Source: Candidatus Pacearchaeota archaeon (lineage in GTDB: Archaea; Nanobdellota; Nanobdellia; Pacearchaeales; UBA284). Taken from it: a stretch of 62,105 nucleotides of DNA. The position numbers and the translations under genes are program-made. The stretch's first letter is position 1; each line of letters starts with the position of its first letter. The stretch lies in assembly GCA_038886195.1 (NCBI GenBank), contig JAVZYK010000001.1, positions 5,356 through 67,460 of the forward strand, given 5' to 3'. The notes below the pieces were generated by a model. That model saw only the letters and a program-made list of their open reading frames with translations. It was not told where the DNA came from and did not search any database. Shown here piece by piece: positions 14,297 through 51,852 of the stretch.

Positions 14297-15265
14297 TTAT
14301 TCCTCTTTTGGTTTTTCTAAACACATTTTATGATATTTTTTCCAAAAATTAATTATTTCGTTTTGATAATATATTGTTTCTTTAATATACGGGATTCCTT
14401 TTACTTTAGAAACAGGTTCAGGACCGCAATTATAAGCAGAAATTCCCATTCTTACATCTCCTTCAAATTTTCTAAACATTAAAGCAAGATAATTTGCTCC
14501 TATTTGAATTGCTTTATCTAGAATAAAACGCTCATCAATTTCTTTTATAATACTGTCTGGTTTCCCTTTTACTTTGGATAATAGATCTTTTTTATAATAT
14601 GCAAATAAACTATCTGCTTTTTTTCTCTTTTTTTCATAATCTAAGTAAGTAATCTTGGCAAGTTCAAATTCTTTGCTTGTAAAAAGAGAAATAGCTCTTT
14701 TATATAATTCGTTCGCTTCTTTATTTAATATTTCTGCTTGTTTCAAATAACCAGGATAATAAACTTTAAGTTTATATCCTTGAGCTGTTGAAGGCATTAA
14801 TTGCGATGGACCTGCGGCGCCAACTCTAGATATAGCAAATCTTTCGAATCCTGATTCAGCCTTTATTTTTCCAAGCACAAGTACAGCATCAAGAGGAAAA
14901 ACATCTTTATTGGCTTCAATTGCTTCTTGCACTATAGGAATGTAATCTTTTGCTTTTGGATAATCTTTTGTTATTGCTTCTAAGTTTTTGTAATCAGGAG
15001 CTTCTTTAAATATAAAGAATTCTGAACCAATTGTTTCAGGTTCATTAGGTTTGAACCTGATTTGAAATAATGAATCTAAAATAAAATTTTTTAAGGAATC
15101 TGTTGAAATAGTTGAAGCATTTTCTTGTTTCGGTTTTTTTGATTCTTGATATTGTGCTGTTTTAATTATTGATAATGCTGAGCTTCCAAGCAAAGTTAAA
15201 CAAACTGAAACTTTCCAATAATTTTTTAAAAAAGCAGTTAAGTTTTGGGCAGCATTGTTTTTCAT
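14297..15265 (-). CDS. Secreted lytic transglycosylase (SLT/GH23 domain)
   Basis: KAESGF catalytic Glu, GAAGPSQLMPSTA, GANYL, AYNCGP, ETIYY; N-terminal hydrophobic anchor. Confidence 0.88.
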   Translation of the reverse strand: MKNNAAQNLTAFLKNYWKVSVCLTLLGSSALSIIKTAQYQESKKPKQENASTISTDSLKNFILDSLFQIRFKPNEPETIGSEFFIFKEAPDYKNLEAITKDYPKAKDYIPIVQEAIEANKDVFPLDAVLVLGKIKAESGFERFAISRVGAAGPSQLMPSTAQGYKLKVYYPGYLKQAEILNKEANELYKRAISLFTSKEFELAKITYLDYEKKRKKADSLFAYYKKDLLSKVKGKPDSIIKEIDERFILDKAIQIGANYLALMFRKFEGDVRMGISAYNCGPEPVSKVKGIPYIKETIYYQNEIINFWKKYHKMCLEKPKEE

Positions 15266-17421: not shown

Positions 17422-18564
17422 ATGGAAAAAGAGAAAAATGAATTAAGAATAACTCCTTACGAAGTCGTTGGAGTTGTAACTGAGAAAGATTATCAGTCTT
17501 TAATAAGAGAATTTGGGATTAGACCTTTAACATCGGAACTTTTGGAAAGAATAAAAAAGCATACAAAAGAATTACATTTTATGTTGCGTAGAGGCGTATT
17601 TTTTGCTCATCGTGATTTGGATTGGCTTCTTGATGAATATGAAAAAGGCAACGAATTTTTTCTTTATACTGGAAGAGCGCCTTCTGGTGAAACTCATATA
17701 GGTCATTTATTGCCATGGGTTCTTTGTAAATGGTTACAGGATAAATTTGATGTTGAAATGTGGTTTCAATTTCCCGATGAAGAAAAGTTTATGTTTCGTC
17801 CAGAATTAAGTTTTGACCAGGTTCAAAAATATACTTATGAAAATATGTTGGATGTAATTGCTTTAGGATTTAAACCTGGAAAGACCCATTTTTTAATAGA
17901 TACGAAACATGCCAACTTAATGTATAAAGAGGCATGTAAAGTTGCGAAGAAAATTACTTTTAGTACAGTTAAAGCAGTTTTTGGTTTTACCAATGAGACT
18001 AATATTGGATCTATATTTTACACAGCAATGCAATCAGTTCCCGCTTTCTTGCCTAGCGTGTTGAAAGGCAAAAACATTCCTTGTTTAATTCCTCTTGGAG
18101 TTGATCAAGATCCTCATTTTAGGATAACAAGAGATGTTTTGCCCAAACTTGGCTATTATAAACCTTCTATTTTGCATGCAAAGTTTTTATCTGGTTTGAA
18201 AGTTTATGGTGGTAAAATGTCTACAAGCGATCCTGATTCCACGATTTGGACAACTGATTCTCCAGAACAAGTTAAACAAAAAATAATGAAACACGCATTT
18301 AGCGGAGGACAAGGGACTGTTGAAAAGCATCGAAAACTTGGGGGCAATCCTGACATTGATGTTTCTTTCCAATGGCTTTACTATTTCTTTGAACCTGATG
18401 ATAAAAAAATAGAAGAAATTCGTGAAGATTATAAATCTGGCAAATTATTAACTTCTGAACTTAAAGCTTATCTTATAGATAAAATTAATGAATTCTTAAA
18501 AGAGCATCAAAAGAAGCGAGAACTTGCTAGAAAGCAGGTTGATAAATTTATTTTTAAGTCGTGA
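17422..18564 (+). CDS. trpS: Tryptophanyl-tRNA synthetase (archaeal/eukaryotic type)
   Basis: YTGRAPS..THIGH, GVDQDPHFR, KMSTS, HAFSGG. Confidence 0.96.
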   Translation: MEKEKNELRITPYEVVGVVTEKDYQSLIREFGIRPLTSELLERIKKHTKELHFMLRRGVFFAHRDLDWLLDEYEKGNEFFLYTGRAPSGETHIGHLLPWVLCKWLQDKFDVEMWFQFPDEEKFMFRPELSFDQVQKYTYENMLDVIALGFKPGKTHFLIDTKHANLMYKEACKVAKKITFSTVKAVFGFTNETNIGSIFYTAMQSVPAFLPSVLKGKNIPCLIPLGVDQDPHFRITRDVLPKLGYYKPSILHAKFLSGLKVYGGKMSTSDPDSTIWTTDSPEQVKQKIMKHAFSGGQGTVEKHRKLGGNPDIDVSFQWLYYFFEPDDKKIEEIREDYKSGKLLTSELKAYLIDKINEFLKEHQKKRELARKQVDKFIFKS

Positions 18565-18946
18565 TTTTTAAAATTTTCAATAATTCCTTTTTATTGGCGA
18601 TATACCGAATATATTTTTTATAATTCTTTGGATCTACCTTATAGATTTTAAATTTTCTTATTTGTTTTTTATAGGAATATTGTTGTCTAGGTCCTTTATT
18701 TGCCTTAACATTCACTTCGTACACATATCCTTTTCCTGGTTTTTTATTCCCTACTATTAATAATCTATTTGGGGTAACTGCAAAAACTGTTTTACCTTTC
18801 AATGTTTTTCCTATGGCATATAATGCTGCGTGCTTAAATGTTTTGCATAAAAATACAGCTTTTTGATTTTCAAATTCGCTTAATACTTTCCCTTGTCTTG
18901 GATTTAGAAATTTTAATTTTTTTGGAGAACCATGATATAATTTCAT
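18554..18946 (-). CDS. Basic protein with ADP-ribosyltransferase-like fold signature
   Basis: LYHGS ... AVFL ... A..YA ... GYVYEV strand pattern. Confidence 0.5.
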   Translation of the reverse strand: MKLYHGSPKKLKFLNPRQGKVLSEFENQKAVFLCKTFKHAALYAIGKTLKGKTVFAVTPNRLLIVGNKKPGKGYVYEVNVKANKGPRQQYSYKKQIRKFKIYKVDPKNYKKYIRYIANKKELLKILKITT

Positions 18947-18955
18947 TTATAAAAA

Positions 18956-19030
18956 TGGCCCCGAGGGGATTTGAACCCCCGACACCTTGCTTAAAAGGCA
19001 AGTGCTCTAACCAGGCTGAGCTACGGGACC
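18956..19030 (-). tRNA. tRNA-Lys(TTT)
   Basis: Reverse complement GGTCCCGTAGCTCAGCCTGGTTAGAGCA-CTTGC-CT-TTT-AA-GCAAG...GTTCAAATCC...CGGGGCCA. Confidence 0.95.
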
Positions 19031-19108
19031 TTGTTTAAGTGAAGCAAAGAATGTTTATAAATTTTTGTTAAAATTTTTTAGATTAAAAAAAGAATTCGAA
19101 TTCTCTAT

Positions 19109-19255
19109 TTATATTTTTATTTTTGTATCTTTAATGTCTTTGCTGTGCTGGTCCATCTCACCAGCTTCAAGACAATCCCAACAAGTATGTACAGAACCAT
19201 CAGGCTCTTTAACTATACCAGTTCCGTGACATTTAGGACAATTTTTTCTTGCCAT
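19109..19255 (-). CDS. Small zinc-finger protein (48 aa)
   Basis: Manual translation MARKNCPKCHGTGIVKEPDGSVHTCWDCLEAGEMDQHSKDIKDTKIKI*; below the ORF-track cutoff. Confidence 0.75.
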   Translation of the reverse strand: MARKNCPKCHGTGIVKEPDGSVHTCWDCLEAGEMDQHSKDIKDTKIKI

Positions 19256-19353
19256 TTTTTCCTTAGCCCTAAAAATAGAATGGCTTAGAGTTTAAAAAGT
19301 TTGTTATAATGAACTATCTTTTTAAATAGCAGACAAAAGTTCTTTGCTTCTCT

Positions 19354-19374
19354 AGGTGCTCGGCAATTTTCTTT
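19354..19374. repeat. 21-bp direct repeat, left copy (AGGTGCTCGGCAATTTTCTTT)
   Basis: Identical to 21239-21259; 17-bp core also at 21009-21025. Confidence 0.9.
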
Positions 19375-19480
19375 TCTACTATCCTTTAAATTAATTATTA
19401 ACAAGAGACTGAAAATAAGAGATTAAAAAAATTAAAAAAGAAGAACCAAAAAGAGATGAGAAAAAATAAAAAAAATAAAA

Positions 19481-19702
19481 TTAAACCAAACCTTTTTCTC
19501 TTATATTTTTAGCAATCCTTCCTTTTCCTTCCTTTTCATAATAATCCGCTACTTTATCTCGCAATTCTTCTTGTAAAGGAACACCAGTAGCTTCAATTAT
19601 ATATTTCAAATCATCAAACCTTCCTTCCTCTGCAGCCTTTTGATAACCTGCCTGAATAATTTCATCTTTAATCTTAGGCTTTACACCAGTAAATTTCCCT
19701 TT
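19481..19702 (-). pseudogene. Orphan C-terminal fragment of a helical-repeat protein, no ATG
   Basis: Open frame KGKFTGVKPKIKDEIIQAGYQKAAEEG...DKVADYYEKEGKGRIAKNIREKGLV* directly preceded by a stop. Confidence 0.6.
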
Positions 19703-19718
19703 TTAATTTATACCAAAA

Positions 19719-19835
19719 TTATTTACTAAGTTTCTCTATCTTTCTTCTCAACTCCATTGCCTTTCTTCCCATACCTGCTCTTTCATAAGCATCAGCCAAT
19801 TTTTCCATCTCTATTATCTTCTCCTCTTTATACAT
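19719..19835 (-). pseudogene. Orphan C-terminal cap fragment or micro-ORF (38 aa)
   Basis: MYKEEKIIEMEKLADAYERAGMGRKAMELRRKIEKLSK*; resembles the tail of the adjacent fragment. Confidence 0.5.
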
Positions 19836-19864
19836 TCAAAAATAATAAAAAAATCTCTGAATTA

Positions 19865-21136
19865 TTATTTTTTCTCTCTACTCTTTTCATAACTTTCTAC
19901 TAATATAGAAATAATATCGCCAACGTCTCCTTTTTCTTCAGCCGCTTTTTTCGCATACTTTAAAGCCTCTTCCTTCGCTCCCACCATAGCCGCAATCCAC
20001 CCAGCACCGTAATAGTTTCTTTTTTTAGCCGCTTTTTTTGCATACTCTAAAGCCTCTTTCTTTGCTCCTGCCATAGCCGCAATCCTTCCAGCACAGTAAT
20101 AGTCTCCTTTTTTATCCTCTTTTTTTGCATACTCTAAAGCCTCTTTCTTTGCTCCTACCCTAGCCGCAATCATTCCAGCACCGTAATAGTCTCCTTCTTT
20201 AGCCGCTTTTTTTGCATACTCTAAAGCCTCTTTCTTTGCTCCTGCCATAGCCGCAATATCTCCAGCACCGCCATACAATCCTTTTTTAGCCCATTTTTTT
20301 GCATACTCTAAAGCCTCTTTCTTTGCTCCTACCCTAGCCGCAATCATTCCAGCATCGTCATACCATCCTCTTTCAGCCGCTTTTTTTGCATACTCTAAAG
20401 CCTCTTTCTTTGCTCCTACCCTAGCCGCAATATCTCCAGCACAGCAATACTCTCCTGTTCCAGCCTCTTTTTTTGCATACTCTAAAGCCTCTTCTTTTGC
20501 TCCTACACTAGCCGCAATCATTCCAGCATCGTAATAGTATCCTTTTTCAGCCAGTTTTTTTGCATACTCTAAAGCCTCTTTCTTTGCTCCTACCCTAGCC
20601 GCAATCCTTCCAGCCTTGTCATACCATCCTTTTTCTTCAGCCGCTTTTTTTGCATACTCTAAAGCCTCTTCTTTTGCTCCTACACTAGCCGCAATCATTC
20701 CAGCATCGTAATAGTATCCTTTTTCAGCCAGTTTTTTTGCATACTCTAAAATTTCCTTTTTCTCACTTGGAGAAAATACTTCTTTGACTCCTTTGACTGC
20801 TGGCTTGACTGCTGGCATTCCTATACTTTTTGATTTTGCATATTCTGCCAGTTCTTTAATACGATCAAAATTATTTGTTTTTAATGCCTCTTGAATCTCT
20901 CTTTTAAGCCTGTACCCTTCCCTCTCTTGCAATTTTTTGTAATCTTCTCTAGCAATATCAATAATTTCTGGCAAATGCTCTTCAACAAAAGCTGTTTGCT
21001 TCTCGAGATGCTCGGCAATTTTCTTCTCTACTGCCTCTTTCTCGCGAAACAATTTTTTATACTCAGAAAAACGCTTTACTAACTCTTTCTCCAAATCCTT
21101 TTTCCCTTTTGTCATCCCTTTTTTTTCTTTTGCCAT
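19865..21136 (-). CDS. Helical (TPR-like) tandem-repeat protein with charged N-terminal domain
   Basis: 423 aa; nine full and one partial 29-aa repeats LEYAKKxAxxGxYxxAGxIAAxVGAKxEA. Confidence 0.9.
   Translation of the reverse strand: MAKEKKGMTKGKKDLEKELVKRFSEYKKLFREKEAVEKKIAEHLEKQTAFVEEHLPEIIDIAREDYKKLQEREGYRLKREIQEALKTNNFDRIKELAEYAKSKSIGMPAVKPAVKGVKEVFSPSEKKEILEYAKKLAEKGYYYDAGMIAASVGAKEEALEYAKKAAEEKGWYDKAGRIAARVGAKKEALEYAKKLAEKGYYYDAGMIAASVGAKEEALEYAKKEAGTGEYCCAGDIAARVGAKKEALEYAKKAAERGWYDDAGMIAARVGAKKEALEYAKKWAKKGLYGGAGDIAAMAGAKKEALEYAKKAAKEGDYYGAGMIAARVGAKKEALEYAKKEDKKGDYYCAGRIAAMAGAKKEALEYAKKAAKKRNYYGAGWIAAMVGAKEEALKYAKKAAEEKGDVGDIISILVESYEKSREKK
19928..20749 (-). repeat. Coding tandem array of 87-bp units (one 90 bp)
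   Basis: Recurring TTTGCATACTCTAAAGCCTC and TAGCCGCAAT blocks; units 1 and 3 identical. Confidence 0.95.
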
Positions 21137-21238
21137 ATTTTTTCTTAGTTTTTTTGGTTTTTAAAATTTGTTGCGATGAGTGAGAATCAAAGAGACATAA
21201 TAGAAAGGTTCAAGATAAAAAACGAAGAAGGATTAAAA

Positions 21239-21259
21239 AGGTGCTCGGCAATTTTCTTT
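21239..21259. repeat. 21-bp direct repeat, right copy
   Basis: Identical to 19354-19374; 40 bp from the 3' end of tRNA-Asp. Confidence 0.9.
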
Positions 21260-21299
21260 ACAGAGCCTACAACATCTGCTCGTAATACAGAAAGTTAAA

Positions 21300-21371
21300 C
21301 GCCCGCACCGGGATTCGAACCCGGATTACAGCCGTGACAGGGCTGTGTGTTAACCATTGCACCATACGGGC
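21300..21371 (-). tRNA. tRNA-Asp(GTC)
   Basis: Reverse complement GCCCGTATGGTGCAATGGTTAACACA-CAGCC-CT-GTC-AC-GGCTG...GTTCGAATCCCGGTGCGGGCG. Confidence 0.93.
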
Positions 21372-21487
21372 ACATTTTTTAAAAAATTTTATAATTTTTA
21401 AAGTTTTTCTCTTATGTAAATTTAGAAACTAAAACACTAAAAATTTAAACCCAAAAAGGCAACCATTGTTATAAAAAAGAGGCGAAA

Positions 21488-22096
21488 ATGGAAAAAGGAA
21501 AAGAGCACGAGCATCACAAGCATTTTAAATTCAGGATCGTAGGAAAAAGCGCTTTTGAGAAACATAGAGACTTTTATGAGATATTTTTTTCTGAATTTAT
21601 TTCTATAACTGGCGGTTTGATTGCCGGCTTATTTTTGCTCAATATTAAAAATAGTTTAGAGTTTGTTCCCGCCCTACTTATTCTGCTTCCTGGTTTTTTG
21701 GAACTTCAAGGAAATCTTTTAGGATCTTTAGCTGCAAGATTAAGTGTAGCTTTGCACTTGAGAAAATTGAAGCCTGAACTAAATCATGGAAAAATCTTTA
21801 CTTCCAATATTGCGGCTACTGTTTTTTTAGCATTTGTTGTTTCTATGGTTTTAGGAATCTCTGCTTATATTTTAACTAAAATAATTTTTGGTATTTCGGC
21901 CATAAATATAATTTTTATTTCCATAATTGCCATGTTTTTTTCACTTGTTTTAGGAATTCCTTTAACTGTCTTGGCTATATTTTGGTTTTTTAAAAAAGGA
22001 TTAGAGCCAGATGATATAATGGGGCCTTATGTTACAACTTTAGCAGATGTTATTAGTATTATAACAATTTTGATGGCTATTGCAATAATGGTATAG
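21488..22096 (+). CDS. MgtE/SLC41-type divalent cation transporter membrane domain
   Basis: PGFLELQGNLLGSLAARLS and GLEPDDIMGPYVTTLADV motifs; His-rich N-terminus. Confidence 0.85.
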   Translation: MEKGKEHEHHKHFKFRIVGKSAFEKHRDFYEIFFSEFISITGGLIAGLFLLNIKNSLEFVPALLILLPGFLELQGNLLGSLAARLSVALHLRKLKPELNHGKIFTSNIAATVFLAFVVSMVLGISAYILTKIIFGISAINIIFISIIAMFFSLVLGIPLTVLAIFWFFKKGLEPDDIMGPYVTTLADVISIITILMAIAIMV

Positions 22097-22101
22097 AAAA
22101 A

Positions 22102-22644
22102 ATGAAACTGTTCATGAAAATTGTGCGTGAAAGCATATTTGTTTTAATTATAGCTACGCTTTTAAGTTCAATTGGTGGCATTGCTTTAAAATCTGTAGAA
22201 GAAAGTCTTGTCACCATAGTTCCTCTAATTATCATATTGCCCGCCTTGAATGACATGATTGGAGATTTTGGAATTATTTTGGTTTCAAGATTTACTACTG
22301 CTTTGTATATGAATAAAAAGATAAAAATTGTGGCAAAACATCTGTTTAAAGATGTGTTTTTAATTTCATTAATTTCTGCGATTTATATTGCAGTGATTGG
22401 AACTTTTTTTTCTTTATCAAAAGGTTTTTCTTTTAATGCCGTCTTTTTGTTAAAGATGATTGTTTTAACCCTCATTACAACTACTGGATTAGTTTTGATT
22501 AATTTTCTAATTGCTTTTTTTGCTGGCAAATATGTTTATAAGAAAAAGATTGATCCTGACGATGTTTTGATACCTTTAACTACTTCTATAGCGGATTTAG
22601 GAGCGATGATTATTTTGTCTTTGTTAGTTTTATGGCTTTTTTGA
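22102..22644 (+). CDS. MgtE/SLC41-type transporter membrane domain, second half
   Basis: PALNDMIGDFG and IDPDDVLIPLTTSIADL motifs. Confidence 0.85.
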   Translation: MKLFMKIVRESIFVLIIATLLSSIGGIALKSVEESLVTIVPLIIILPALNDMIGDFGIILVSRFTTALYMNKKIKIVAKHLFKDVFLISLISAIYIAVIGTFFSLSKGFSFNAVFLLKMIVLTLITTTGLVLINFLIAFFAGKYVYKKKIDPDDVLIPLTTSIADLGAMIILSLLVLWLF

Positions 22645-33414: not shown

Positions 33415-34059
33415 TTAAAATTTCCTTTTGCTTTTTATCTTTTTTATAATTGTTTTCAGCGCATAATAGCTGCTTCCAAAAATTATAACTCCCGGTATTA
33501 AAGCAATTCCCATTGTTGGAGCCAGAGCAATTGCACCTATTGTTCCTAAAAAACCCGCGCCTATGCTTTCTAGAATGTTGGCTATTTTAGGAACGTCTTT
33601 TTCTATATCTTTTTGTAAAGCATCTATCTGCATTATGAATTTTCCATTTCTAAATATCTTGACTTTGTGTTCTTCTTCTGAACACAAAATTGCAATATTG
33701 CCTCCCTTAGATGCTGTTATTGCCGCAGCATGCCTTGTTCCAAATCCAACAAAAGGCTTTGTTTTTTTAATCATAGCCCCATAGTTCATTATAATTCCTT
33801 CTTTATTGATTATCACTGCTCCATCAATAGTTGCTATTGCTTGTAATGTTTTTTCTGTACCTGGAGTAAGAACATTAAAAGGTTTAATTTCTTGTTTTAT
33901 TAGTAAAGAATATTCTATTTTTTTTCCTTTATTTATCACGAACAGCGCTCCTTCTCCTTTTTTTGAGATATTTATTGCTATTTTCAAAATTTTTTCTTCT
34001 ATTTCTTTTAATCTTTTATTTGATTTTTTTTCTTTTTGTTTCTTATCTTTTTTCACCAT
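33415..34059 (-). CDS. Diadenylate cyclase (DisA_N/DAC) with C-terminal TM hairpin
   Basis: GALFV, DGAVII, GTRHAAA, SEE; hydrophobic C-terminus. Confidence 0.87.
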   Translation of the reverse strand: MVKKDKKQKEKKSNKRLKEIEEKILKIAINISKKGEGALFVINKGKKIEYSLLIKQEIKPFNVLTPGTEKTLQAIATIDGAVIINKEGIIMNYGAMIKKTKPFVGFGTRHAAAITASKGGNIAILCSEEEHKVKIFRNGKFIMQIDALQKDIEKDVPKIANILESIGAGFLGTIGAIALAPTMGIALIPGVIIFGSSYYALKTIIKKIKSKRKF

Positions 34060-40855: not shown

Positions 40856-42184
40856 ATGCCGGAAGATATTATTATTGGAAGAGACGAGAGTGATAAAAAG
40901 AAATTTGGAAATGAAGGTTTGATTTTTTTAGGTAAACATTATGTTAAGATGGGTCAGATTACTTCTTTAAGCAATAGAGTTATGATGGACGTTGCTAGAG
41001 CCCATGTGGTTCTTGTGGCAGGCAAGAGGGGCTCTGGTAAGTCGTATACTTTAGGAGTTATTGCAGAAGAGATTTCTAATTTGCCTCCAGAGGTTTCACA
41101 GAATATAGCTGTATTAATTTTCGATACAATGGGAATTTTCTGGACAATGAATTACAAAAATGAGAAAGAAACAGAATTAATTAAAGAATGGCAAATTGAG
41201 CCAAAGAAATTGCCGGTTAGAGTTTTTGTTCCTTTTGGTTATGCTGAAAAATGGCGCGAAAGAGGAATCCCTGTTTATAAAGAATTTGCTTTGAAACCAA
41301 GCGATATAACGGCAGAAGAGTGGTGTTTAACTTTCGGTTTAAGTTTCGTCGATCCTGTAGGAGCAGTAATTCAAGGAGCTGTAACTAGACTTCAAGAAGC
41401 AGTTGAAGAAGGTTCAATTAAATCTTTTGATATTGATGACATTATTAGAACAATTATGTTAGATAAAGAAGCTGGTAAAAATGAAAAGAATGCGGCCATT
41501 AATTTGTTCGAAGCGGCTAAAACATGGAAAATTTTTGCAACTAAAAAGGAAAAGGGAACTACCATTGCAGAATTGATAGAGGCCGGAAAAACTAGTATAA
41601 TTGATTTGAGCTGTTACAGCAGCATTGGAACTGTAAATGTTCGTGCGCTTGTTATTGGACTTGTTTGTAAAAAATTATTTAATGAAAGAATGGAAGCAAG
41701 AAAGCATGAAGAGATTGAAGCAGTAAGACATGGTTTGGATTATCTTTACTATAAAGAAAAGAGAGAAATGCCTTTAGTTTGGATTTGTATCGATGAAGGC
41801 CATGAATTTTTGCCTTTACACGGAAAAACTGCCGCTACGGATGCTTTAATACAATTGCTTCGTGAAGGAAGGCAGCCCGGAATTAGTGTTGTTATAGCCA
41901 CGCAACAGCCAGGACAAATACATCATGATGTTATGACTCAGAGCGATATTGTTATAAGTCATAGAGTTACAGCCAAGCCAGATATAGATTCTTTGAATTA
42001 TATTATGCAAACTTATCTTTTAGCTGATATTAAAACATATTTGGATAATTTGCCTAGATTGAAAGGTTCTGCAATTATACTTGACGATAATAGTGAAAGA
42101 ATATATCCTATACGTGTGAGGCCAAGATTCACTTGGCACGGCGGCGAGGCACCAACTGCAGTAAAAGTGAAAAAAAGAATTTAA
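40856..42184 (+). CDS. HerA/FtsK/VirB4-like P-loop ATPase
   Basis: GKRGSGKS, ICIDEGH, REGR, ATQQP. Confidence 0.88.
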   Translation: MPEDIIIGRDESDKKKFGNEGLIFLGKHYVKMGQITSLSNRVMMDVARAHVVLVAGKRGSGKSYTLGVIAEEISNLPPEVSQNIAVLIFDTMGIFWTMNYKNEKETELIKEWQIEPKKLPVRVFVPFGYAEKWRERGIPVYKEFALKPSDITAEEWCLTFGLSFVDPVGAVIQGAVTRLQEAVEEGSIKSFDIDDIIRTIMLDKEAGKNEKNAAINLFEAAKTWKIFATKKEKGTTIAELIEAGKTSIIDLSCYSSIGTVNVRALVIGLVCKKLFNERMEARKHEEIEAVRHGLDYLYYKEKREMPLVWICIDEGHEFLPLHGKTAATDALIQLLREGRQPGISVVIATQQPGQIHHDVMTQSDIVISHRVTAKPDIDSLNYIMQTYLLADIKTYLDNLPRLKGSAIILDDNSERIYPIRVRPRFTWHGGEAPTAVKVKKRI

Positions 42185-42261
42185 TTTTCTTTAAAATTGA
42201 GTTACTATTATAAAGTGAAAAATATAGAAAAATTTATAAGTACATTTATTATATCTTTTTT

Positions 42262-44580
42262 ATGCACAGACTATATGAAAATCTAATAGGAGGGGATGGA
42301 AATTTAATTCCTGAGTTGATAAAATCAATTGGTAATTTATATTTTTTAAGGAATGATATTAAAGATTTTAGAAATGCTTTAGGTGATTTGCCTGAATTTG
42401 AAAGCCTTGAAAATATAATTCAAGTTGTTCCACCAGCGGATTTTACAGCATCAGTTGAAAACTTTATTAAGAGATTGTGGGACCAATATTGTTCTTTAAG
42501 AACAGATCCCAATTATGGAGAAAAAATTATAGCTAAGAAATTTGAAATTGCTAAAAAAATAAATAAGTTTAGAAAAGTAAGAGGAACACATCAAGATATA
42601 GATGAAGATGCAGAATTTGAAGTTTTTTTTGCTCCTTATGAAATAGAGTTTCTTAAAGATATTAAAAACGAAATTGGTAAATTATCAGAAATAGTAGAGT
42701 CAAGAAGTGAAATCATTAACGTATCTGCTTTAAGATTAGAAGAAATTATTAATAAAACAAACGAGCCAAGATTGATTAATTTAGCAATGGCGACCTATAT
42801 TCGAGGAATTGGCAGCATAATTGGAGAAATAGAAAAAGACTCTTTAGCGAAATCAGCAAATGTTAATTATTTTAAATATCAAATCGTTTTACCTGAATTG
42901 AATAATTTATTTGAAATATTGAGAAAAATCCTAATAGAGTCGATTGATTCTAAAATAAAATCTGAAGCCTTTATTAGACCTTCTCCAATGCTTTTAGTAA
43001 ATCAAAAAATAATTCCGCAACAGCAATATAATATAGGCACCATAGAAGCATCCCTCATCTATGATGTTGATTATTCTTTGTTGGGTCTTAAAGGTTATGA
43101 AAGTATTGGGAATTTTTTAAAAAATGTAGTTTTAGGTTTAATTAAAGATCGCAGATTTGAAGATTTTCTCGTAGACAAAACAGATAGAAAATTTGTAGAG
43201 AAAATAAAACAAAATATTCCTTCTGCTATAGAAATTGCTATTAAAAATCCGGACATAATTAACGAAATTTTAAGACGTGAAGAAATCGTTATAAAATTAA
43301 AGGATTTGTTAAAAAAAGAAAAATTAGATCCAAATGTAATAAATATTTATTTAAAATTTCTAACGGACTGGAGAAGGGCAGAAGCGCTGTTCCCAGCAAT
43401 AAATAGAATTAAAAGTGTAGAATATCTTTTAAGAAACGAAGAGAAGAAAAGAAAGCTCAAGGAAGAACATGAAAATGGGAATATTTATAGATTTGATGAA
43501 AGACAAGTAGTTTATAGAAATAAGAAAACTATCAGCATTAATTTTGATATGCGCGATAGCACTATTTACGTAGATAAATTGGGTGATGAATTTAATACTT
43601 TATTTGATGAAATTTTTAATTATCCAACGTTAAAAGAACTTTGTAAAAAATATAAAGCAACTTCTGGAAAAAGAAAATATGCTGGCGATGAACAATTATA
43701 TTCTTTTATTGGAATGTTCTATCCAGCAGTGAATTCTTTGCTTTTTATAAAGGAATTTTTTCAAGAATTTAAGGAAATAAGAGAAAGAAAAAAAGAAGTT
43801 TTAAAATCTAAGTATGGAGAAGATTTTAGTTTAGAATTCGGTGCAGCAATGTATTTGCATTTTTTTAATCCTGAAAAACCAGAAGATTATGAAAGCGGCA
43901 TCACTATCGTAAGAGATTTGTCAAAATCTATAAAAGAAAATATTGGAAATGGAAATTGTCATCCTTCTGTTTATATAACTGAAAAAGGAATTTTTAATTA
44001 TGGTTTGATTATTGCTGAGAATTGTAATTTAGAATCAAAAGAAACTTTTGTTAAATCTCTCGAAGAAGAATTAACTATTTTAAATAGAATTGATATGGCT
44101 GAATTAAAGGAAGAACCTTTTTACAAGTTACTTTTTAAAGTAAAGGAAACAAAAGGAGATATAAGATTGAAATCTTCTAAAGATTTAGAAAAAGAAGGCG
44201 TGGATCTTTTTACCAATAAATTATGTTTACATTATTATCTTTTTAATTTGTTTTCAAAAAATAAGAATCCAGAAGGAAAATACAATATAAAATATAAAGA
44301 GATGGATGTAGTGATTTCAGAGACAGATATGAGGGCCATTATAAAAAAATATTGTAGCAACTATGTTACTTATTCTATTCCTTTAATTGCTTCAGATTAT
44401 CCTGATTTAATTAAAATAGCGGACAACTATCCTTTAAGAACTTCTAGAATAGCAATTTATGCGATGCCTCTAGATAGAGAAGATTTTGATAATTTTGTTC
44501 ATTATTTTTACAATGATTCTTTACAATGGATATATGATAAATGGAAAAGGCTAAAGGAGGACAAAAAAACAGAAAAATGA
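42262..44580 (+). CDS. Large protein with a divergent class III nucleotide cyclase-like domain
   Basis: SINFDMRDST and KYAGDEQLYSF correspond to the two metal-binding Asp motifs. Confidence 0.6.
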   Translation: MHRLYENLIGGDGNLIPELIKSIGNLYFLRNDIKDFRNALGDLPEFESLENIIQVVPPADFTASVENFIKRLWDQYCSLRTDPNYGEKIIAKKFEIAKKINKFRKVRGTHQDIDEDAEFEVFFAPYEIEFLKDIKNEIGKLSEIVESRSEIINVSALRLEEIINKTNEPRLINLAMATYIRGIGSIIGEIEKDSLAKSANVNYFKYQIVLPELNNLFEILRKILIESIDSKIKSEAFIRPSPMLLVNQKIIPQQQYNIGTIEASLIYDVDYSLLGLKGYESIGNFLKNVVLGLIKDRRFEDFLVDKTDRKFVEKIKQNIPSAIEIAIKNPDIINEILRREEIVIKLKDLLKKEKLDPNVINIYLKFLTDWRRAEALFPAINRIKSVEYLLRNEEKKRKLKEEHENGNIYRFDERQVVYRNKKTISINFDMRDSTIYVDKLGDEFNTLFDEIFNYPTLKELCKKYKATSGKRKYAGDEQLYSFIGMFYPAVNSLLFIKEFFQEFKEIRERKKEVLKSKYGEDFSLEFGAAMYLHFFNPEKPEDYESGITIVRDLSKSIKENIGNGNCHPSVYITEKGIFNYGLIIAENCNLESKETFVKSLEEELTILNRIDMAELKEEPFYKLLFKVKETKGDIRLKSSKDLEKEGVDLFTNKLCLHYYLFNLFSKNKNPEGKYNIKYKEMDVVISETDMRAIIKKYCSNYVTYSIPLIASDYPDLIKIADNYPLRTSRIAIYAMPLDREDFDNFVHYFYNDSLQWIYDKWKRLKEDKKTEK

Positions 44581-45758
44581 ATAGAAAAAATAATCATGTT
44601 GTGGAAGCTATATCTTGTGGAGTATCTAATAATTTAGAATCTAAATTCGAGACAGGAATTATTAAAAAAATAACTGTAGAACATATTTTTGAAAATCCTA
44701 ATGAGCCAAAGTATGATGAGTTGCTTGAAGATAGAGTTACTATAGAAACTATAATTTTAGTACCGGCTAAGAAAAAAAAGACAAAAAAAGATGAAATTGA
44801 GTTTGAGACAAATTTAGTTCAGAATTTAATAGAAAAAATTTATAGAGATAAAGAAATAGCATTTACAGAAATTAAAGCCTATGATAACGAAGGTAAACCA
44901 GTCGCTAATAAATTCTGGCAAAATGCTTTAGATTCTAAATATGAGATGGAAGAGATTATAGTGAGAAGAGTTAATGAAGATGATAAAGAGATTGTTAAAG
45001 AATTTACAGAAAAAGAAATAGAGGAAAATTATTTAATATTTCAAAAATTAAAAATTGTTGGTGTTCCAAAAGAAATAGAAAAAGTTATTAAAAAATATTC
45101 TTTATTAGAGGATGTCATTCTTTATAATGCTCCTAAAGAATTTACTGGAAAAAATTGGGAAAGATATAAGTTATTAAAATATAAATTTAACGGAATTTAT
45201 TATAGAACTTCTCATATACCTAAAGAAATGGAAAATTTACAAAGACCTTGCTTCTCAAAAGATTCAGTTCTTAAAGATATTGTTGCAGAAAATCTTCTAG
45301 AGATAGAAAAAGAAGAAATTTTAAAATTTTTAGAAAAAACTCTACAAAGAAAATATGAAGAGAATAAAATTAAAAAAATAATGAGAGATGATTTTAATAA
45401 GCTTATAAAGTTATTTCTTTTTGAATTGAGACAACAAATTATAAAAGATGTTTTAAGAAATCCCGAACTTGGTTGGGATAGTTTTGATTGGAGAATAAGT
45501 TTTGATAGATCTAATAATATAAGAGTTTATGATATATTTAATAAAAATGGCGAAAGAATTTATGATTTTACTTTTAGTCTTTCTTCAAACGTACCAATTA
45601 AAAATTGGTTGGTTAGAAAATTTAGCTATTTTTTTGAAGAGCCTTCAAAAGCATCTTTATTTGAAACAATGAGTGGTTATGGAAGGAATTTTGCTATAAG
45701 ATGCCTGTTTGATTATTTCTCTTTATTAAATAAGCCCTTTGGAATGTCCCTTCCTTAA
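44577..45758 (+). CDS. Hypothetical protein coupled to the cyclase-like gene
   Basis: ATGA overlap at 44577-44580; 393 aa; no family recognised. Confidence 0.7.
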   Translation: MNRKNNHVVEAISCGVSNNLESKFETGIIKKITVEHIFENPNEPKYDELLEDRVTIETIILVPAKKKKTKKDEIEFETNLVQNLIEKIYRDKEIAFTEIKAYDNEGKPVANKFWQNALDSKYEMEEIIVRRVNEDDKEIVKEFTEKEIEENYLIFQKLKIVGVPKEIEKVIKKYSLLEDVILYNAPKEFTGKNWERYKLLKYKFNGIYYRTSHIPKEMENLQRPCFSKDSVLKDIVAENLLEIEKEEILKFLEKTLQRKYEENKIKKIMRDDFNKLIKLFLFELRQQIIKDVLRNPELGWDSFDWRISFDRSNNIRVYDIFNKNGERIYDFTFSLSSNVPIKNWLVRKFSYFFEEPSKASLFETMSGYGRNFAIRCLFDYFSLLNKPFGMSLP

Positions 45759-45803
45759 ATAATTGTGGATAAATTTAAAAAAAGATTTGCATTTATTATT
45801 TTA

Positions 45804-46523
45804 ATGGAAAAAAGAGGTTTTAAAAGAATTCCTAAGGGAGTCACCAATGTAGAAATGATTATAGCCGCAACTTTTTTCATTTTTTCAATAGTTATTGTAA
45901 TTTATTATATCAATTTCATTGGTATTGAAAGAGAGCCTTCTGATATCTTTCTTGACATTATTGAAAAAAATTTGAGAGAAAAAAGTGAAGTAAATTATAA
46001 TTTAACTTATTTAATAATTAATCCTTCTATTCAAACTGGTTGTTTTAACATATCAAAGCATTCTAGCATAATTAAAGAAAATAATGTGTTTATTAAAGAA
46101 GAAAATGGACATAAAGTCGATTTTAATGCCACTACCGATAGGCTTTTAATTAGAAATGGAGGACAGATTCACAATTATTTTATTTACACATTTCCTTTTA
46201 ATGTAGTTGCTATAGATCAATTTACTCCTTCAACCTGTAATGAACTTGCCGATAGCGATTATAATTATAGTATAACTTATGAAGATAAGATTTTTGTTTA
46301 TGAAAATTTGACTGATCTATTTGAGACTCCTTATAATGAATTAAAACAGCAATTGCAATTCAAAGAAGACTTTTTGATAAATTTAAGTGCGGCCGGACAA
46401 AGTTTGAGTGTAGGCGGAATAAAACCATTACAAACATCCGTTAAAGCTAGACAGTTTCAAATAAAAATTATAAATAAAACTGGAGATATTTTTGAAGGAA
46501 TTATTAATATTCAAGTTTGGTAA
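45804..46523 (+). CDS. Pilin-like protein with class III signal peptide
   Basis: KRIPKG|VTNVEMIIA plus hydrophobic helix; start reassigned to ATG 45804. Confidence 0.7.
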   Translation: MEKRGFKRIPKGVTNVEMIIAATFFIFSIVIVIYYINFIGIEREPSDIFLDIIEKNLREKSEVNYNLTYLIINPSIQTGCFNISKHSSIIKENNVFIKEENGHKVDFNATTDRLLIRNGGQIHNYFIYTFPFNVVAIDQFTPSTCNELADSDYNYSITYEDKIFVYENLTDLFETPYNELKQQLQFKEDFLINLSAAGQSLSVGGIKPLQTSVKARQFQIKIINKTGDIFEGIINIQVW

Positions 46524-48785: not shown

Positions 48786-48887
48786 AATAATAAAAGGTTA
48801 AAATAAAAATTGTTCAATAATTACGAAATCTTTAAATAGCAAAAATTTTTAAAATATATTAATAAAAAGAAGGTATTGTTTTGTCAA

Positions 48888-51851
48888 ATGGTTATTTCGA
48901 AAACAAAAGACTTTAGAAAGAGAAAAAAAAGAGAAATTTTTTTTGGAATGCCTTTTTTGCCTTTAGCAACATTTTTAATTTTAATCATAACGGTGCTTGT
49001 TGTTTCTAGTTTAAACGAAACAAACAGGCCTCAAAATGAATTTTCTTCAAAACAACAATATGAAATTATAAAAACACAAATTACTGGCGAAGTGGTTGGT
49101 GGTTTAAATTTGACTAAGATAAATTACAATATTAATGAACCTTTACAAGGCCAGTTCAATTTAAAATTTTATCAAGGCGATTTGATTCCTGTAGCAAGCA
49201 ATCTTAGTTTTAAAATTTCTGGAATAAAATGCAATTATTTTTATGTTTGCGGCGATGGTGAAACTTTGGCTCCTTGGGAATTTTATAATGTAACGGCAGG
49301 AAGATGTCAAAATATTAGTGGTTATTGGCAAACCAGTCCTTGGGAAGATTATTGTGGTGAAAGTTATAATGTTTATCCTAATGAAAATAGTGCAATAAAC
49401 TGTACAAGTTTAGGAGGCAAATGTTGTGATGCTGGCAATGGGATTGGTTATTTTTATCCTAATTTAAATTGCAGTTATTCTGGAGCAAATAAAGAATGTT
49501 GGGATGATTGTGCTACAACTCAAGTTGTTAATTTAAAAACATTGGTTAGCAAATCAACAACTCCAACTAAAGGCAATTATAGTTATGGAACTTATAATAA
49601 TGTTAATGGTTCTGAACCTTCGGGCCAAGGTTGGGGCTTTGGTTATTGTACTGAAACTGCTGGCGGAACTTTTGGCGGCGGCATTTTTGGAAGATTAGGC
49701 AACACTGGTTATGCCATTGGAGGCCCAGGAATTGAAATTCCTGACTTGGTTGTTTCTAGAGTTTATTTAAGTGAAGAAATAGAGAATAAAATTTATGCAA
49801 CAGTTGAAAATATCATTGGTAGCGTAACTAAAGAATTTGTTGTTGTTGCTTGTTGGGGCAATCCTCCAGATATGAATTGTAAAGATGGTCAAGTAATCCC
49901 TCCAATTCCTCCTAATTGTATAGTTAAGATAATTAATCCAATTAATCAACGATGGGAAGTTAATGTAGGAAATTTAGATTTAATGCTTAATAAAAGACTT
50001 TATGTTGAAGCTGATTACTGCGAAGTTATTAATGAAGCTAACGAAAGTAATAATGTTTTATCAAGATGGATTGGTTGTTTAGATCTTGATGGTTTAGATC
50101 CTTATATTTTTGGAACTTGTGAAGATATGAATGGCAAGTATGATGACATTTGTTCGCTTCTTCCAGGAATTGAAGGAGTTCAGGAAAAGTATTGTGTAAA
50201 TGCGCTGCCTTTGCCTTATTGTAGTACCAAGACAATTGAATGTGGAAAAGGAGAGATCTGTCAAGAAGGAAGGTGTGTTCAACAGCCTGTTCAGCCTTGG
50301 TGTAATGATACAGATGAAGGCAATCCTATGGTTGGAGGAAGTTGTTCGGATTCGCAAGGAAACGGCGGCTTTGATGATTGTATTAATGAAACTTATTTAA
50401 AAGAATATGTTTGTGCCGGATTTAATTGGCCGCAGTGTACTTATAATTACATAAATTGCGAAGAAGTTGTTGGAACTGGTTCGAGATGTGTTATAGATAT
50501 GATTTCTGGATTCGGTAAATGTAGTGAATCAGTACAATTAAAACCAGACTTGATTGTTGAAAAAATTGAAAGAACGAGTGATATGAGAAAAGTTTTAGTG
50601 TGGATAAAAAATCAAGGTAATGCTATAGCAATTGCTCCTTTCAACGTTTCTTTAAATATAACTGGTGAAACTAATGCATTTGAAATTTTAACTTTTAATT
50701 CTAATTTAGGATCTGGTAGCAATGGTTCAATAATTGGACAAACAAATATAGAGGGTAAAACAGTTCATGTAACTGCTTTTGCTGATTATCCTTCTCCAGG
50801 CGTAGTTGATGAGTCAAATGAGTATAATAATGAAATGGCCAATGTCTATTTATCACCTTATTCTTGTCAAAACTGGAGTAATGTTTATATTGTGCCTCTT
50901 GGTTCTAATGGTTTAAACTTGAAAGCTCCTGCTGATGAAGGAAATTATTATTTGAATGTTTCTTTATATTATAATTCTAACTCTACAGGATTTGTTGAAA
51001 TGTCAAAAACCTCCGCTATTTTTATAGCAAGAAGACCAACAATTTACTATTATAAGGGATGTGAAAACAACAAATGTATTACTAAAAAAAGTACAACTCC
51101 AAAAAATGATACATGTGATAGCGATTCTGATTGTACCGGGCCAGGCTATTGTAATGAGAATTGGAAATTTAAAGATTTAACTGGTTGTGTAAATAAACAA
51201 AGAAAGCTTGAATGTTACGATGAAAAAAACTGTGGCACGATTGATAAGTTGCCTCTGGGTTGTAATTATGATGCTGCTTTAGGAAGATATTTCAAGATTG
51301 AAAGTTGTTGCGAGTCTAATTGGCAATGTGATGCTTGGAGTGTTTGTTACAAACATCAGGGCAGTTCGGTTCAAAGCATGACTTGTAAAGATTTAAATGA
51401 GTGCAACCCTCAAAATTCTAGTTATATTCAGCTTAGAGATTGTTGTATAGAAGATTGGCAATGTAAGTGGGGTCCTTGTATTAATGGAAGACAAAAATTA
51501 ATTTGTCAAGAAATGGCCGGTTGCGGTACAGAATTTACAAAACCTAAAGAAGAAATAAAAGAATGTAAAGAGGCCATAGCAATAGCGTGGTGGATATGGT
51601 TAATTATAATTGTGGCTGTTGTTGCTGTTACTTTAGTTATACTTTTTGCTACAAGGGTCATTAGATTGCCTAAAGCTAAGAAAGAATTTAGAGAAGAAAT
51701 TGAAAAAGCGAAGCCAGAAGAAAATCTCGAATTGATTAATTATATTAAAAGCGCTTTAGCTGCAGGCATGTCTAAAGAAGAAATAAAGAAAAAATTAATC
51801 GAGGCCGGATGGCCACAAGACCTTGTTGATTTAGAGCTTAAAAAATTTTAG
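48888..51851 (+). CDS. Cys-rich surface protein with two CARDB-like domains, N- and C-terminal TM
   Basis: PDL...EANESNN and PDL...ESNEYNN; CxDxDxG modules; W.C..W..C repeats; C-terminal AGWP tail. Confidence 0.85.
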   Translation: MVISKTKDFRKRKKREIFFGMPFLPLATFLILIITVLVVSSLNETNRPQNEFSSKQQYEIIKTQITGEVVGGLNLTKINYNINEPLQGQFNLKFYQGDLIPVASNLSFKISGIKCNYFYVCGDGETLAPWEFYNVTAGRCQNISGYWQTSPWEDYCGESYNVYPNENSAINCTSLGGKCCDAGNGIGYFYPNLNCSYSGANKECWDDCATTQVVNLKTLVSKSTTPTKGNYSYGTYNNVNGSEPSGQGWGFGYCTETAGGTFGGGIFGRLGNTGYAIGGPGIEIPDLVVSRVYLSEEIENKIYATVENIIGSVTKEFVVVACWGNPPDMNCKDGQVIPPIPPNCIVKIINPINQRWEVNVGNLDLMLNKRLYVEADYCEVINEANESNNVLSRWIGCLDLDGLDPYIFGTCEDMNGKYDDICSLLPGIEGVQEKYCVNALPLPYCSTKTIECGKGEICQEGRCVQQPVQPWCNDTDEGNPMVGGSCSDSQGNGGFDDCINETYLKEYVCAGFNWPQCTYNYINCEEVVGTGSRCVIDMISGFGKCSESVQLKPDLIVEKIERTSDMRKVLVWIKNQGNAIAIAPFNVSLNITGETNAFEILTFNSNLGSGSNGSIIGQTNIEGKTVHVTAFADYPSPGVVDESNEYNNEMANVYLSPYSCQNWSNVYIVPLGSNGLNLKAPADEGNYYLNVSLYYNSNSTGFVEMSKTSAIFIARRPTIYYYKGCENNKCITKKSTTPKNDTCDSDSDCTGPGYCNENWKFKDLTGCVNKQRKLECYDEKNCGTIDKLPLGCNYDAALGRYFKIESCCESNWQCDAWSVCYKHQGSSVQSMTCKDLNECNPQNSSYIQLRDCCIEDWQCKWGPCINGRQKLICQEMAGCGTEFTKPKEEIKECKEAIAIAWWIWLIIIVAVVAVTLVILFATRVIRLPKAKKEFREEIEKAKPEENLELINYIKSALAAGMSKEEIKKKLIEAGWPQDLVDLELKKF

Positions 51852-51852
51852 A

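Follow-up and report, generated by a model that had tools for sequence, protein, structure and literature searches.

A tandem-repeat gene of Candidatus Pacearchaeota with a homogenised DNA scaffold and hypervariable codons: a plausible shortened TPR-like binding solenoid

The 62,105-nucleotide (nt) stretch of contig JAVZYK010000001.1 analysed here, called the window below (positions 5,356 to 67,460 of the forward strand, assembly GCA_038886195.1, Candidatus Pacearchaeota archaeon), contains a gene that raises an unusual question. Why should a series of tandem repeats remain almost identical as DNA, silent sites included, when a handful of codons within each repeat change from unit to unit and nearly always change the amino acid? 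The gene, the only long open reading frame (ORF) at 19865-21136 on the minus strand, encodes 423 amino acids (aa) plus a stop codon. The original prediction, made from the DNA letters, described it as a natural combinatorial binder diversified by recombination between repeats. Our analysis confirms the sequence observation on which this prediction was built and supports its interpretation in part, in that the binder reading is plausible.

The coding sequence consists of an N-terminal part, a repeat array and a cap, all on the minus strand. A highly charged N-terminal helical domain and linker (aa 1-125; 20762-21136) without any family match is followed by nine tandem units (aa 130-391; 19964-20749) of 29 aa each, except for unit 2, which has 30 aa. 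The protein is closed by a partial tenth unit and a capping helix (aa 392-423; 19868-19963), ending in ...GDVGDIISILVESYEKSREKK. Tandem Repeats Finder detects the array at 19940-20750 as 9.3 copies of an 87-nt period, with 86% matches. The consensus of the unit is LEYAKKxAxxGxYxxAGxIAAxxGAKxEA, and unit positions are numbered as in the original prediction, the L of LEYAKK being position 1. A cap resembling that of this array is found in two relatives (L003 and P0001), and a weak, sub-threshold match to the NCBIfam model 'TPR end-of-group' covers aa 375-402. The protein is basic, with an isoelectric point (pI) of 9.3 and 93 K+R against 73 D+E. Neither a signal peptide nor a membrane helix is found in its 423 residues (maximum Kyte-Doolittle 19-residue mean 0.46), which agrees with the predicted lack of an export signal.

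Realignment of the units shows that the six codon sets listed in the original prediction are all exact. These are CTG/GCG/GAG/TGG at position 7, TAC/TGG/GAG/TTG/GAC/AAC at position 12 (AAC confined to unit 9), TAC/GAC/TGC/GGC at position 14, GAT/AAG/TGT/GGT at position 15, ATG/AGG/GAT/TGG at position 18 (TGG confined to unit 9) and AGT/AGG/ATG at position 22. Positions 7, 12, 14, 15, 18 and 22 form the core of hypervariable codons, several of which differ by two or three bases between units. Milder variation, absent from the earlier list, occurs at positions 8, 9, 10, 23 and 27, with only mild charge swaps at positions 9 and 10. The rest of the unit is nearly invariant even at silent sites, just as had been claimed: in units 1-8, 17 of the 29 codon columns are identical and the sole silent difference is AAA/AAG at position 26. 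Unit 9 carries three further silent changes (positions 17, 23 and 25), as would fit the weaker homogenisation usually seen at the edges of an array. No difference separates unit 1 from unit 3, which gives a 107-nt exact repeat, while the longest exact internal repeat besides this pair is 61 nt. The mean identity between units is higher for DNA (86.6%) than for protein (74.9%, range 65.5-100%).

The excess of amino acid changes is found by each of the counts. Pairwise Nei-Gojobori comparison of non-synonymous with synonymous differences per site (pN/pS) gives 2.3 over all columns and 4.6 for units 1-8, and these whole-unit values are the unbiased figures. The corresponding ratios of 9.4 for eight variable codons and 0.39 for the scaffold depend on codons that were picked post hoc, and all of the pN/pS values compare paralogous units of a single gene. 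Minimum-change counts over the nine units find 34 non-synonymous against 4 synonymous changes, and over units 1-8 they find 31 against 1 (binomial P=0.0047). The six core codons, out of 29, receive 25 of the 34 non-synonymous changes (P=6e-11). Expressed per site, there are 1.46 non-synonymous changes at variable codons versus 0.22 synonymous changes (Poisson P about 1e-15). By pN/pS and by change counts alike, the units have a constant scaffold with a handful of diversifying codons, as originally proposed. The variants also recur in new combinations, since all four combinations are present at 10 of 45 pairs of variable sites. The predicted preference for Y, W, D, R and G is partly borne out, these residues occupying 30 of the 54 places at the six core positions compared with 25% protein-wide, but M (7 places) and C (3 places) are also common there. 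K and E together take only 4 of the 54 places.

What holds the scaffold constant becomes clearer when the gene is compared with its best match among the genomes of the order, found in genome G059 (locus L002, protein P0001). This orthologue has the same N-terminal domain, followed by five full units and a partial one, and its units are again nearly identical to one another as DNA. Its array repeats the same scaffold with seven different silent consensus codons. From the window gene to G059, position 1 changes from TTA to TTG, position 5 from AAA to AAG, position 9 from GAA to GAG, position 28 from GAG to GAA, positions 7 and 20 from GCG to GCA, and position 14 from TAC to TAT; every one of these codons is in the majority in the array to which it belongs. 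In the window array five of the seven are the same in all 9 units, among them those at positions 1, 5, 20 and 28. In G059, those at positions 5, 9, 20 and 28 are uniform in all 5 units, while the lineage codon is present in 4 of 5 units at positions 1 and 7 and in 3 of 5 at position 14. Because silent sites change between the lineages yet are homogenised within each array, the scaffold is frozen by concerted evolution, through unequal recombination or gene conversion, and not by a constraint on the DNA or RNA. The identity of units 1 and 3 is the mark of a very recent duplication or conversion. Recombination between repeats, as envisaged by the original prediction, is supported by several signs, namely the four-gamete violations, the identical pair of units and the lineage-specific silent codons fixed array-wide. 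The G059 orthologue is variable at the same places as the window gene, namely 7, 12, 14, 15, 18 and 22. The number of units is 9 in the window gene, 5 plus a partial one in G059 and 3 in a 157-aa relative (L003), whose units are diverged and non-homogenised and are accompanied by the same cap. The N-terminal domain (pS 0.42, pN 0.13 and omega 0.24 between the window and G059) is under purifying selection.

The kinship of the unit had to be traced through its relatives. No Pfam family was matched by the 423-aa query, and TPR, PPR, PUF, TAL, HEAT-like and ankyrin models were all missing at E<=1. A sequence search of the PDB returned nothing below E 0.39, PADLOC gave 0 matches for all six proteins submitted, PHROGs gave 0 matches for the repeat protein, and NCBIfam gave sub-threshold matches only. 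An exhaustive search of 1.84 billion representatives gave 21 matches at E<=0.001. They include small proteins with the same AGxIAAxVGAKxEAL-YAKK unit, some of them with a C-terminal membrane anchor (P0002 and P0016), a protein kinase with related units (P0009) and, as weak matches, ordinary TPR proteins. The N-terminal domain recurs in P0014, which is one of these matches, and in P0015, both with other or shorter C-terminal parts; for this domain the ESM Atlas offered no usable lead. One family member, P0006 (E 1.4e-10 to the query), passes the Pfam TPR_2 model with 33.8 bits against a cut-off of 27, so that by Pfam the TPR kinship is a transitive one, running through P0006 only. Alignment of a three-unit profile with the TPR units of P0013 by hhalign gave a probability of 79.5% and an E value of 1.5e-5 over 75 columns, with a 5-residue deletion per unit at the inter-repeat loop (TPR positions 32-2). 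The TPR signature comprises an aromatic residue at position 4, Gly at 8 and Ala at 20 and 27. In the window protein, Y13 at TPR 4, G17 at TPR 8 and A29 at TPR 20 are present in all 9 units, while the residue at TPR 27, which is unit position 7, is Ala in only 4 of 9. The unit length of 34 residues is not reached either, the units having 29 residues and in one case 30. The ESM Atlas model of this protein (pTM 0.62, pLDDT 0.74) has PPR and TPR solenoids as its nearest structures, the ten listed ones having TM scores of 0.21-0.43 by query, all below 0.5; neighbours aligned over most of the array score 0.31-0.43. We therefore read the unit as a putative shortened, Ala/Gly-packed TPR-like hairpin, which fails the formal tests of TPR length and Pfam score.

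This kinship suggests where the variable residues lie. In the hhalign register, unit positions 12, 14, 15, 18 and 22 correspond to TPR positions 3, 5, 6, 9 and 13. According to the accessible portion of the work of Magliery and Regan (PMC1261162), the most variable TPR positions are 2, 5, 9, 12, 13, 33 and 34, all on the concave face, and the TPR1 and TPR2A domains of HOP hold their peptides through positions 2, 5, 6, 9, 12 and 13. Four of the five variable positions of helix A (14, 15, 18 and 22) coincide with these concave-face contact positions, and the fifth, position 12, abuts the deleted loop and adjoins TPR position 2. When the helix is drawn as a wheel with 100 degrees per residue, positions 14, 15, 18 and 22 cluster in the sector from 200 to 300 degrees, and the invariant A16, G17, A20 and G24 are on the opposite side. 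By homology, the variable positions of helix A would thus be placed on the concave face. The original prediction was to be abandoned if the variable residues scattered over the structure; by the TPR profile alignment those of helix A do not, whereas positions 7, 9 and 10 lie off the canonical concave set.

In the explanation that we favour, and consider rather more probable than its opposite, the fold, the concave placement, the binding and the kind of target are inferred, while the sequence pattern, the signature of selection, the concerted evolution, the TPR-like kinship, the patchy distribution and the low silent divergence are seen in the data. This explanation describes the product as a cytoplasmic mini-TPR solenoid whose concave face would serve as a unit-by-unit variable surface for binding a protein or peptide, diversified by unit shuffling and positive selection. 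Nine or ten TPR-like hairpins of 29 residues would form an alpha-solenoid behind the conserved 125-residue N-terminal helical domain. The invariant Ala/Gly-rich residues would make up a tightly packed core, and positions 12, 14, 15, 18 and 22 would share one side of the first helix of each hairpin, which corresponds to TPR helix A and would line a concave groove. The long variable surface created in this way would most likely have a protein or a peptide as its ligand. Exchange between the 87-nt units, by unequal recombination or gene conversion, would homogenise the scaffold, change the number of units and reshuffle them, and positive selection would keep and promote amino acid differences at the ligand-facing codons. 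The gene is an accessory one, probably acquired horizontally. As its most likely role, the product would serve as a module that recognises a virus, a host cell or a competitor in an interaction that changes fast, in analogy to the NLR-type sensor arrays but without their NTPase.

Several observations speak against this explanation or limit it. Position 7, with its L, A, E and W, aligns to TPR position 27, which is normally a buried small residue (Ala) that makes no ligand contact, and positions 9 and 10 are located in the second helix, so that the variable residues are not all on one face. Position 7 might, as a speculation, tune the packing between repeats. The concave placement depends on an alignment of moderate confidence (79.5%) and on Atlas neighbours that all have TM scores below 0.5, and no Pfam TPR model was matched by the query itself at E<=1. 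The diversifying selection is read from paralogous units and, in part, from codons chosen after the fact, as stated above. Moreover, neighbouring genes, PADLOC, PHROGs and NCBIfam reveal no partner, operon context or defence-system match that would point to a function. To these must be added the points on the assembly of the array, namely that unit number and order are not independently confirmed, that a shorter form is present in one run and that arrays of this kind are a reported difficulty of short-read assembly.

This last matter leads to an alternative that we regard as unlikely, in which the array is an assembly artefact. It would then be a mosaic of units from co-existing strains, or would have a wrong number or order of units, and the diversity between units would in part be diversity between strains. 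For a population comparison we used Logan contigs of four runs from one study labelled as a hot-springs metagenome. Letter for letter, these contigs match both ends of the array and a piece of unit 7, but in all four runs none of them extends across the whole array, and stretches without Logan cover, such as 20272-20352, carry no weight in the comparison. A contig of run X1 joins 20466 to 20644 and is thereby 177 nt shorter, with 107 letters fitting either side, the length of the exact repeat of units 1 and 3; this form may represent either a true allele of seven units or a collapse of the assembly graph. In run X2 a related strain is present, which differs at 8 of 368 nt in the N-terminal region and matches relative P0003, and an X2 contig on unit 3 has five base differences, all of them confined to codons 12, 15 and 18, which there encode E, E and W. 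These differences fit strain-level variation at the hypervariable codons, and the contig is short and could represent another unit of that strain's array. In the relatives P0003 and L010 the arrays break off at a contig end or a frame break, and the available part of one study states that such arrays were not reconstructed accurately in Illumina-based assemblies (PMC12222747). On the other side, the exact repeats besides units 1 and 3 do not exceed 61 nt and can be bridged by ordinary reads, the gene lies inside a 620-kb contig, and the independent G059 orthologue shows the same regime at the same positions. With a chimeric array the number and order of the units would be different, while the core finding, hypervariable codons set in a constant scaffold, would stand. 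Two further joints, 19363 to 21251 in run X4 (side 30, depth 5.5) and 19691 to 21112 in X2 (side 39), could mean strains without the gene; being so short, and placed at or close to a 48-nt fragment that is repeated, they cannot be relied upon.

Other explanations accept the array and assign it a different meaning. The protein could be a generic structural, scaffolding or chaperone-like TPR protein with a recently expanded array, its variable positions being simply unconstrained surface. Many TPR proteins are indeed generic scaffolds, the identity of units 1 and 3 marks a very recent duplication, and a context of defence or conflict was not found here. We nevertheless consider this explanation improbable, since relaxed constraint cannot lift the non-synonymous rate above the silent one (1.46 versus 0.22 per site), the differences at several variable codons involve two or three bases, the G059 orthologue varies at the same positions, and the gene is absent from most of the relatives searched, unlike a housekeeping scaffold. 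A sequence-specific binder of nucleic acids, with a per-repeat code of one base per unit as in PPR, PUF or TALE proteins, appears a shade more improbable again. Among the structural neighbours of the Atlas model a PPR protein ranks first (TM score 0.43 by query), the protein is basic, and near-identity of the units as DNA with few variable residues is TALE-like. However, six to eight residues vary per unit compared with two or three in the known codes, and they are mostly D, Y, M, R, W and G, whereas the PPR code uses T/N/S and D/N pairs. Pfam gives no PPR, PUF or TAL match at E<=1, the sequence relatives that were found are TPR proteins, and a TM score of 0.43 is under the usual bar for a same fold. 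Mutagenesis by a diversity-generating retroelement, or cassette conversion from silent donors, is close to refuted. Such retroelements are said to be common in DPANN archaea, and a fixed third base with varying first two bases (NNC at position 14, NNG at position 7) recalls their targets. In this genome of 645 kb and 91.6% completeness, however, no reverse transcriptase (PF00078) was detected where control genomes scored, the adenines of the scaffold do not vary (all 9 units, for instance, have AAA AAA at positions 5-6), and no other copy of the unit is present that could act as template repeat or donor cassette. Contamination by a synthetic construct is rejected in view of the 620-kb contig and of a natural orthologue with other silent codons. 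A CRISPR-like array is likewise rejected, there being no spacers and the frame being coding.

The distribution of the gene is relevant to the proposal that the binding solenoid is an accessory trait. The gene was found in 5 of 401 genomes sampled from the order, its own included; the search detected it in none of 23 other genomes of its own family and in 3 of 356 genomes of another family. The array alone is found in 3 of 401 genomes of a phylum sample. DNA scans of metagenome_contigs and genome_contigs for further alleles or orthologues found no relative, and a degenerate scaffold pattern gave 0 matches in viral_contigs. There is no synteny with the G059 orthologue, whose neighbours are an enolase-like protein (by sequence reading) and a receiver-like protein, and the neighbours of L003 differ again from both. 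In the N-terminal domain, silent divergence from G059 (pS 0.42) is lower than in AspRS (0.74) and RtcB (0.65), the latter two being near saturation, and protein identity is higher (72% against 58% and 50%). The gene is thus accessory. Because its silent divergence is below that of the two housekeeping genes, horizontal exchange after the two lineages split is suggested as the simplest reading.

The genomic setting of the gene is in keeping with an archaeal host. The window is low in GC, about 31%, and its genes are archaeal in content (a proteasome subunit, an FttA-type factor, an archease, RtcB and a GatB/E-type subunit); the organism is a DPANN-type archaeon, and its genome is assembled in 5 contigs. 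The repeat gene occupies a segment between two tRNA genes on the minus strand, tRNA-Asp(GTC) at 21299-21372 as the upstream border and tRNA-Lys(TTT) at 18956-19030 as the downstream border, and Rfam finds nothing besides these two. An A/T-rich TATA-like box, AAATTTTAAAAA (21158-21169, minus strand), is centred about 28 nt upstream of the ATG and could act as an archaeal promoter from which an mRNA with a short leader, or with none, is made. A 48-nt copy that is 90% identical to the N-terminal coding sequence 20985-21032 lies some 500 nt downstream of the gene, at 19333-19380 on the minus strand. A weaker third copy of this fragment (63% over 48 nt, core about 20 nt) is located between the gene and tRNA-Asp at 21218-21265, also on the minus strand. 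The copies look like footprints of an earlier gene copy or a rearrangement. Three tiny ORFs follow downstream of the repeat gene. Directly beyond the gene, two tiny ORFs at 19719-19835 and 19481-19609 (minus strand; 38 and 42 aa) lie in a stretch weakly similar by tblastn to the units of the gene itself (for example QKAAEEGRFDD versus KKAAERGWYDD) and may be the decayed remains of a second copy. A 48-aa ORF of the same inter-tRNA segment, at 19109-19255 (minus strand), has two Cys pairs (CPKCHGTG ... CWDC) and weak sub-threshold matches to a DnaJ-type zinc finger, to anti-TRAP protein and to a PHROG of unknown function (E 3e-5). No paralogue or extra copy of the unit was found elsewhere in the 645-kb, 91.6%-complete genome, and the array is its only long tandem repeat besides a 171-nt one. 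That repeat, with 2.1 copies and 97% matches, lies outside the window at G000:C1:211636-211988.

In a genome of the same genus, G038, the flanking genes are present and both contigs end beside the corresponding tRNAs, with 279 nt beyond tRNA-Asp that are unrelated to the window; these ends fit a variable or unassembled inter-tRNA segment and nothing more. Its locus L012 (G038:C6, about 57-216), compared with window 18949-19065, has its tRNA-Lys match split by about 40 nt and gives no ARAGORN tRNA, suggesting an intron-containing tRNA-Lys where the window copy is continuous. A 130-aa ORF at window 18554-18946 is missing from the same locus. Directly beyond tRNA-Asp in the window lie two neighbouring genes for divalent cation transporters of the MgtE type, each of half size (202 and 180 aa; 21488-22644, plus strand). 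Farther away, a 322-aa protein at 14297-15265 (minus strand) has a lytic transglycosylase SLT domain (E 1.5e-16) and may act on bacterial-type murein or be a transferred gene. A protein with a DisA_N (diadenylate cyclase) domain at 33415-34059 (minus strand) suggests c-di-AMP signalling in a reduced genome. A HerA/DUF87-type ATPase with a weak Zot match is followed by ORFs of 772, 405 and 252 aa without family match (40856-46523, plus strand) and two more orphan ORFs of 991 and 775 aa at 48876-54180; this region is a possible cluster for secretion, a pilus or DNA transfer. At 54260-62104 (plus strand), open at the window end, a giant ORF exceeds 2615 aa and includes six right-handed beta-helix/NosD stretches and a DUF2341 domain; for a genome of 0.65 Mb, this is a surface-type protein of very large size.

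What would such a repeat protein mean for its host? Concerted evolution together with diversifying selection on a repeat surface is a hallmark of fast-evolving recognition proteins, a regime described mainly for the NLR receptors of fungi and multicellular bacteria. Its occurrence in an NTPase-less, accessory and seemingly transferred gene of a 0.65-Mb DPANN archaeon makes the gene a candidate virus or host recognition factor. To our knowledge, very few factors of this kind are known in organisms that depend on cell-cell contact. Among the TPR-like hairpins examined here, moreover, none shorter than this unit comes with a natural 'library' of surface variants, and the hot-springs label of the runs makes it attractive for binder engineering. 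A practical caveat is that such arrays are a known trap for short-read assembly. We further speculate, as a possibility that we ourselves doubt, that the protein is a stand-alone, NTPase-less counterpart of an NLR sensor in ultra-small symbiotic archaea, a hypervariable, horizontally exchanged mini-TPR receptor that would reshuffle its units within populations to track viral or host-cell proteins, with the conserved N-terminal domain giving the output. If true, this would be a new type of minimal recognition system and its unit a natural thermostable 29-residue binder scaffold.

A comparison with known systems shows how far these likenesses go. Canonical TPR proteins (Pfam clan CL0020) share with the window units the helix-turn-helix, here predicted, the kept residues at TPR 4, 8 and 20 and the capping helix. 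They differ in having a period of 34 and not 29, and in the window units loop residues 32-2 are deleted, the core is Ala/Gly-rich and position 27 is variable. The TAL effectors also have near-identical DNA units with variable residues clustered around position 12 and after, but they vary two residues per 34-aa unit and read DNA, whereas the window array varies six to eight, has TPR relatives and shows no homology to them that we could find. The likeness to engineered alphaRep and DARPin libraries, drawn by the original prediction, is apt as an analogy, although a natural precedent exists in the NLR repeats of fungi and bacteria. In these libraries and in the consensus TPR libraries the scaffold is likewise kept identical and randomisation is confined to a few positions of one face, where Y, W, D, R and G abound (for the DARPin positions, the accessible portion of PMC1261162). 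The window array, in contrast, is natural, evolves by recombination and selection, and has no Pfam kinship to HEAT-like alphaRep or ankyrin units.

The closest parallel is found in the arrays of the NLR receptors. As described in the available parts of two studies (PMC4986451 and PMC12222747), the WD40, ANK and TPR arrays of fungal NLRs, with Podospora HET-E/HET-D and Pa_2_10340 as examples of the 'high internal conservation' (HIC) class, consist of near-identical units under concerted evolution, with a few positively selected codons on the binding surface and polymorphism in repeat number. The selected sites of the fungal TPR arrays map to the concave side. The window array resembles them in its near-identical units, in its concerted evolution, seen in silent consensus codons that are lineage-specific, and in its few hypervariable codons under positive selection, with a surface placement that is suggested by TPR alignment. 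Repeat number is polymorphic in the fungal arrays; for the window gene it differs among relatives, and within the runs the one sign of such variation is the ambiguous joint that is 177 nt shorter. In contrast to the fungal proteins, no P-loop, NACHT or NB-ARC domain is matched by Pfam in the repeat protein and none by PADLOC, so that it lacks the NACHT/NB-ARC NTPase as well as any known effector domain. Its units have 29 residues versus 34 or 42, their mean protein identity of 74.9% is below the HIC threshold of at least 85% over at least 100 aa (as given in the accessible text of PMC4986451), and the gene is single in its 0.65-Mb genome, with no paralogue for unit exchange. The same regime has been noted for bacterial NLRs and a cyanobacterial TPR-like protein with 80-90% unit identity, for which rapid diversification of binding was proposed (bioRxiv 10.1101/2020.01.06.895854, in the part available). 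Compared with these, the window array has an orphan helical domain in front, a DPANN host and a shorter unit. In the openly available full-text literature searched, no description of such an array in DPANN archaea was found among the papers listed. By analogy, the window protein may well work like the NLR sensor arrays while standing outside that family, because it has no NOD NTPase, has 29-residue units and has a unit identity below 85%. Thus, the evolutionary regime is one already known from fungal and bacterial receptors, while its occurrence in an archaeon, in units of 29 aa and without an NTPase domain, is what is new here.

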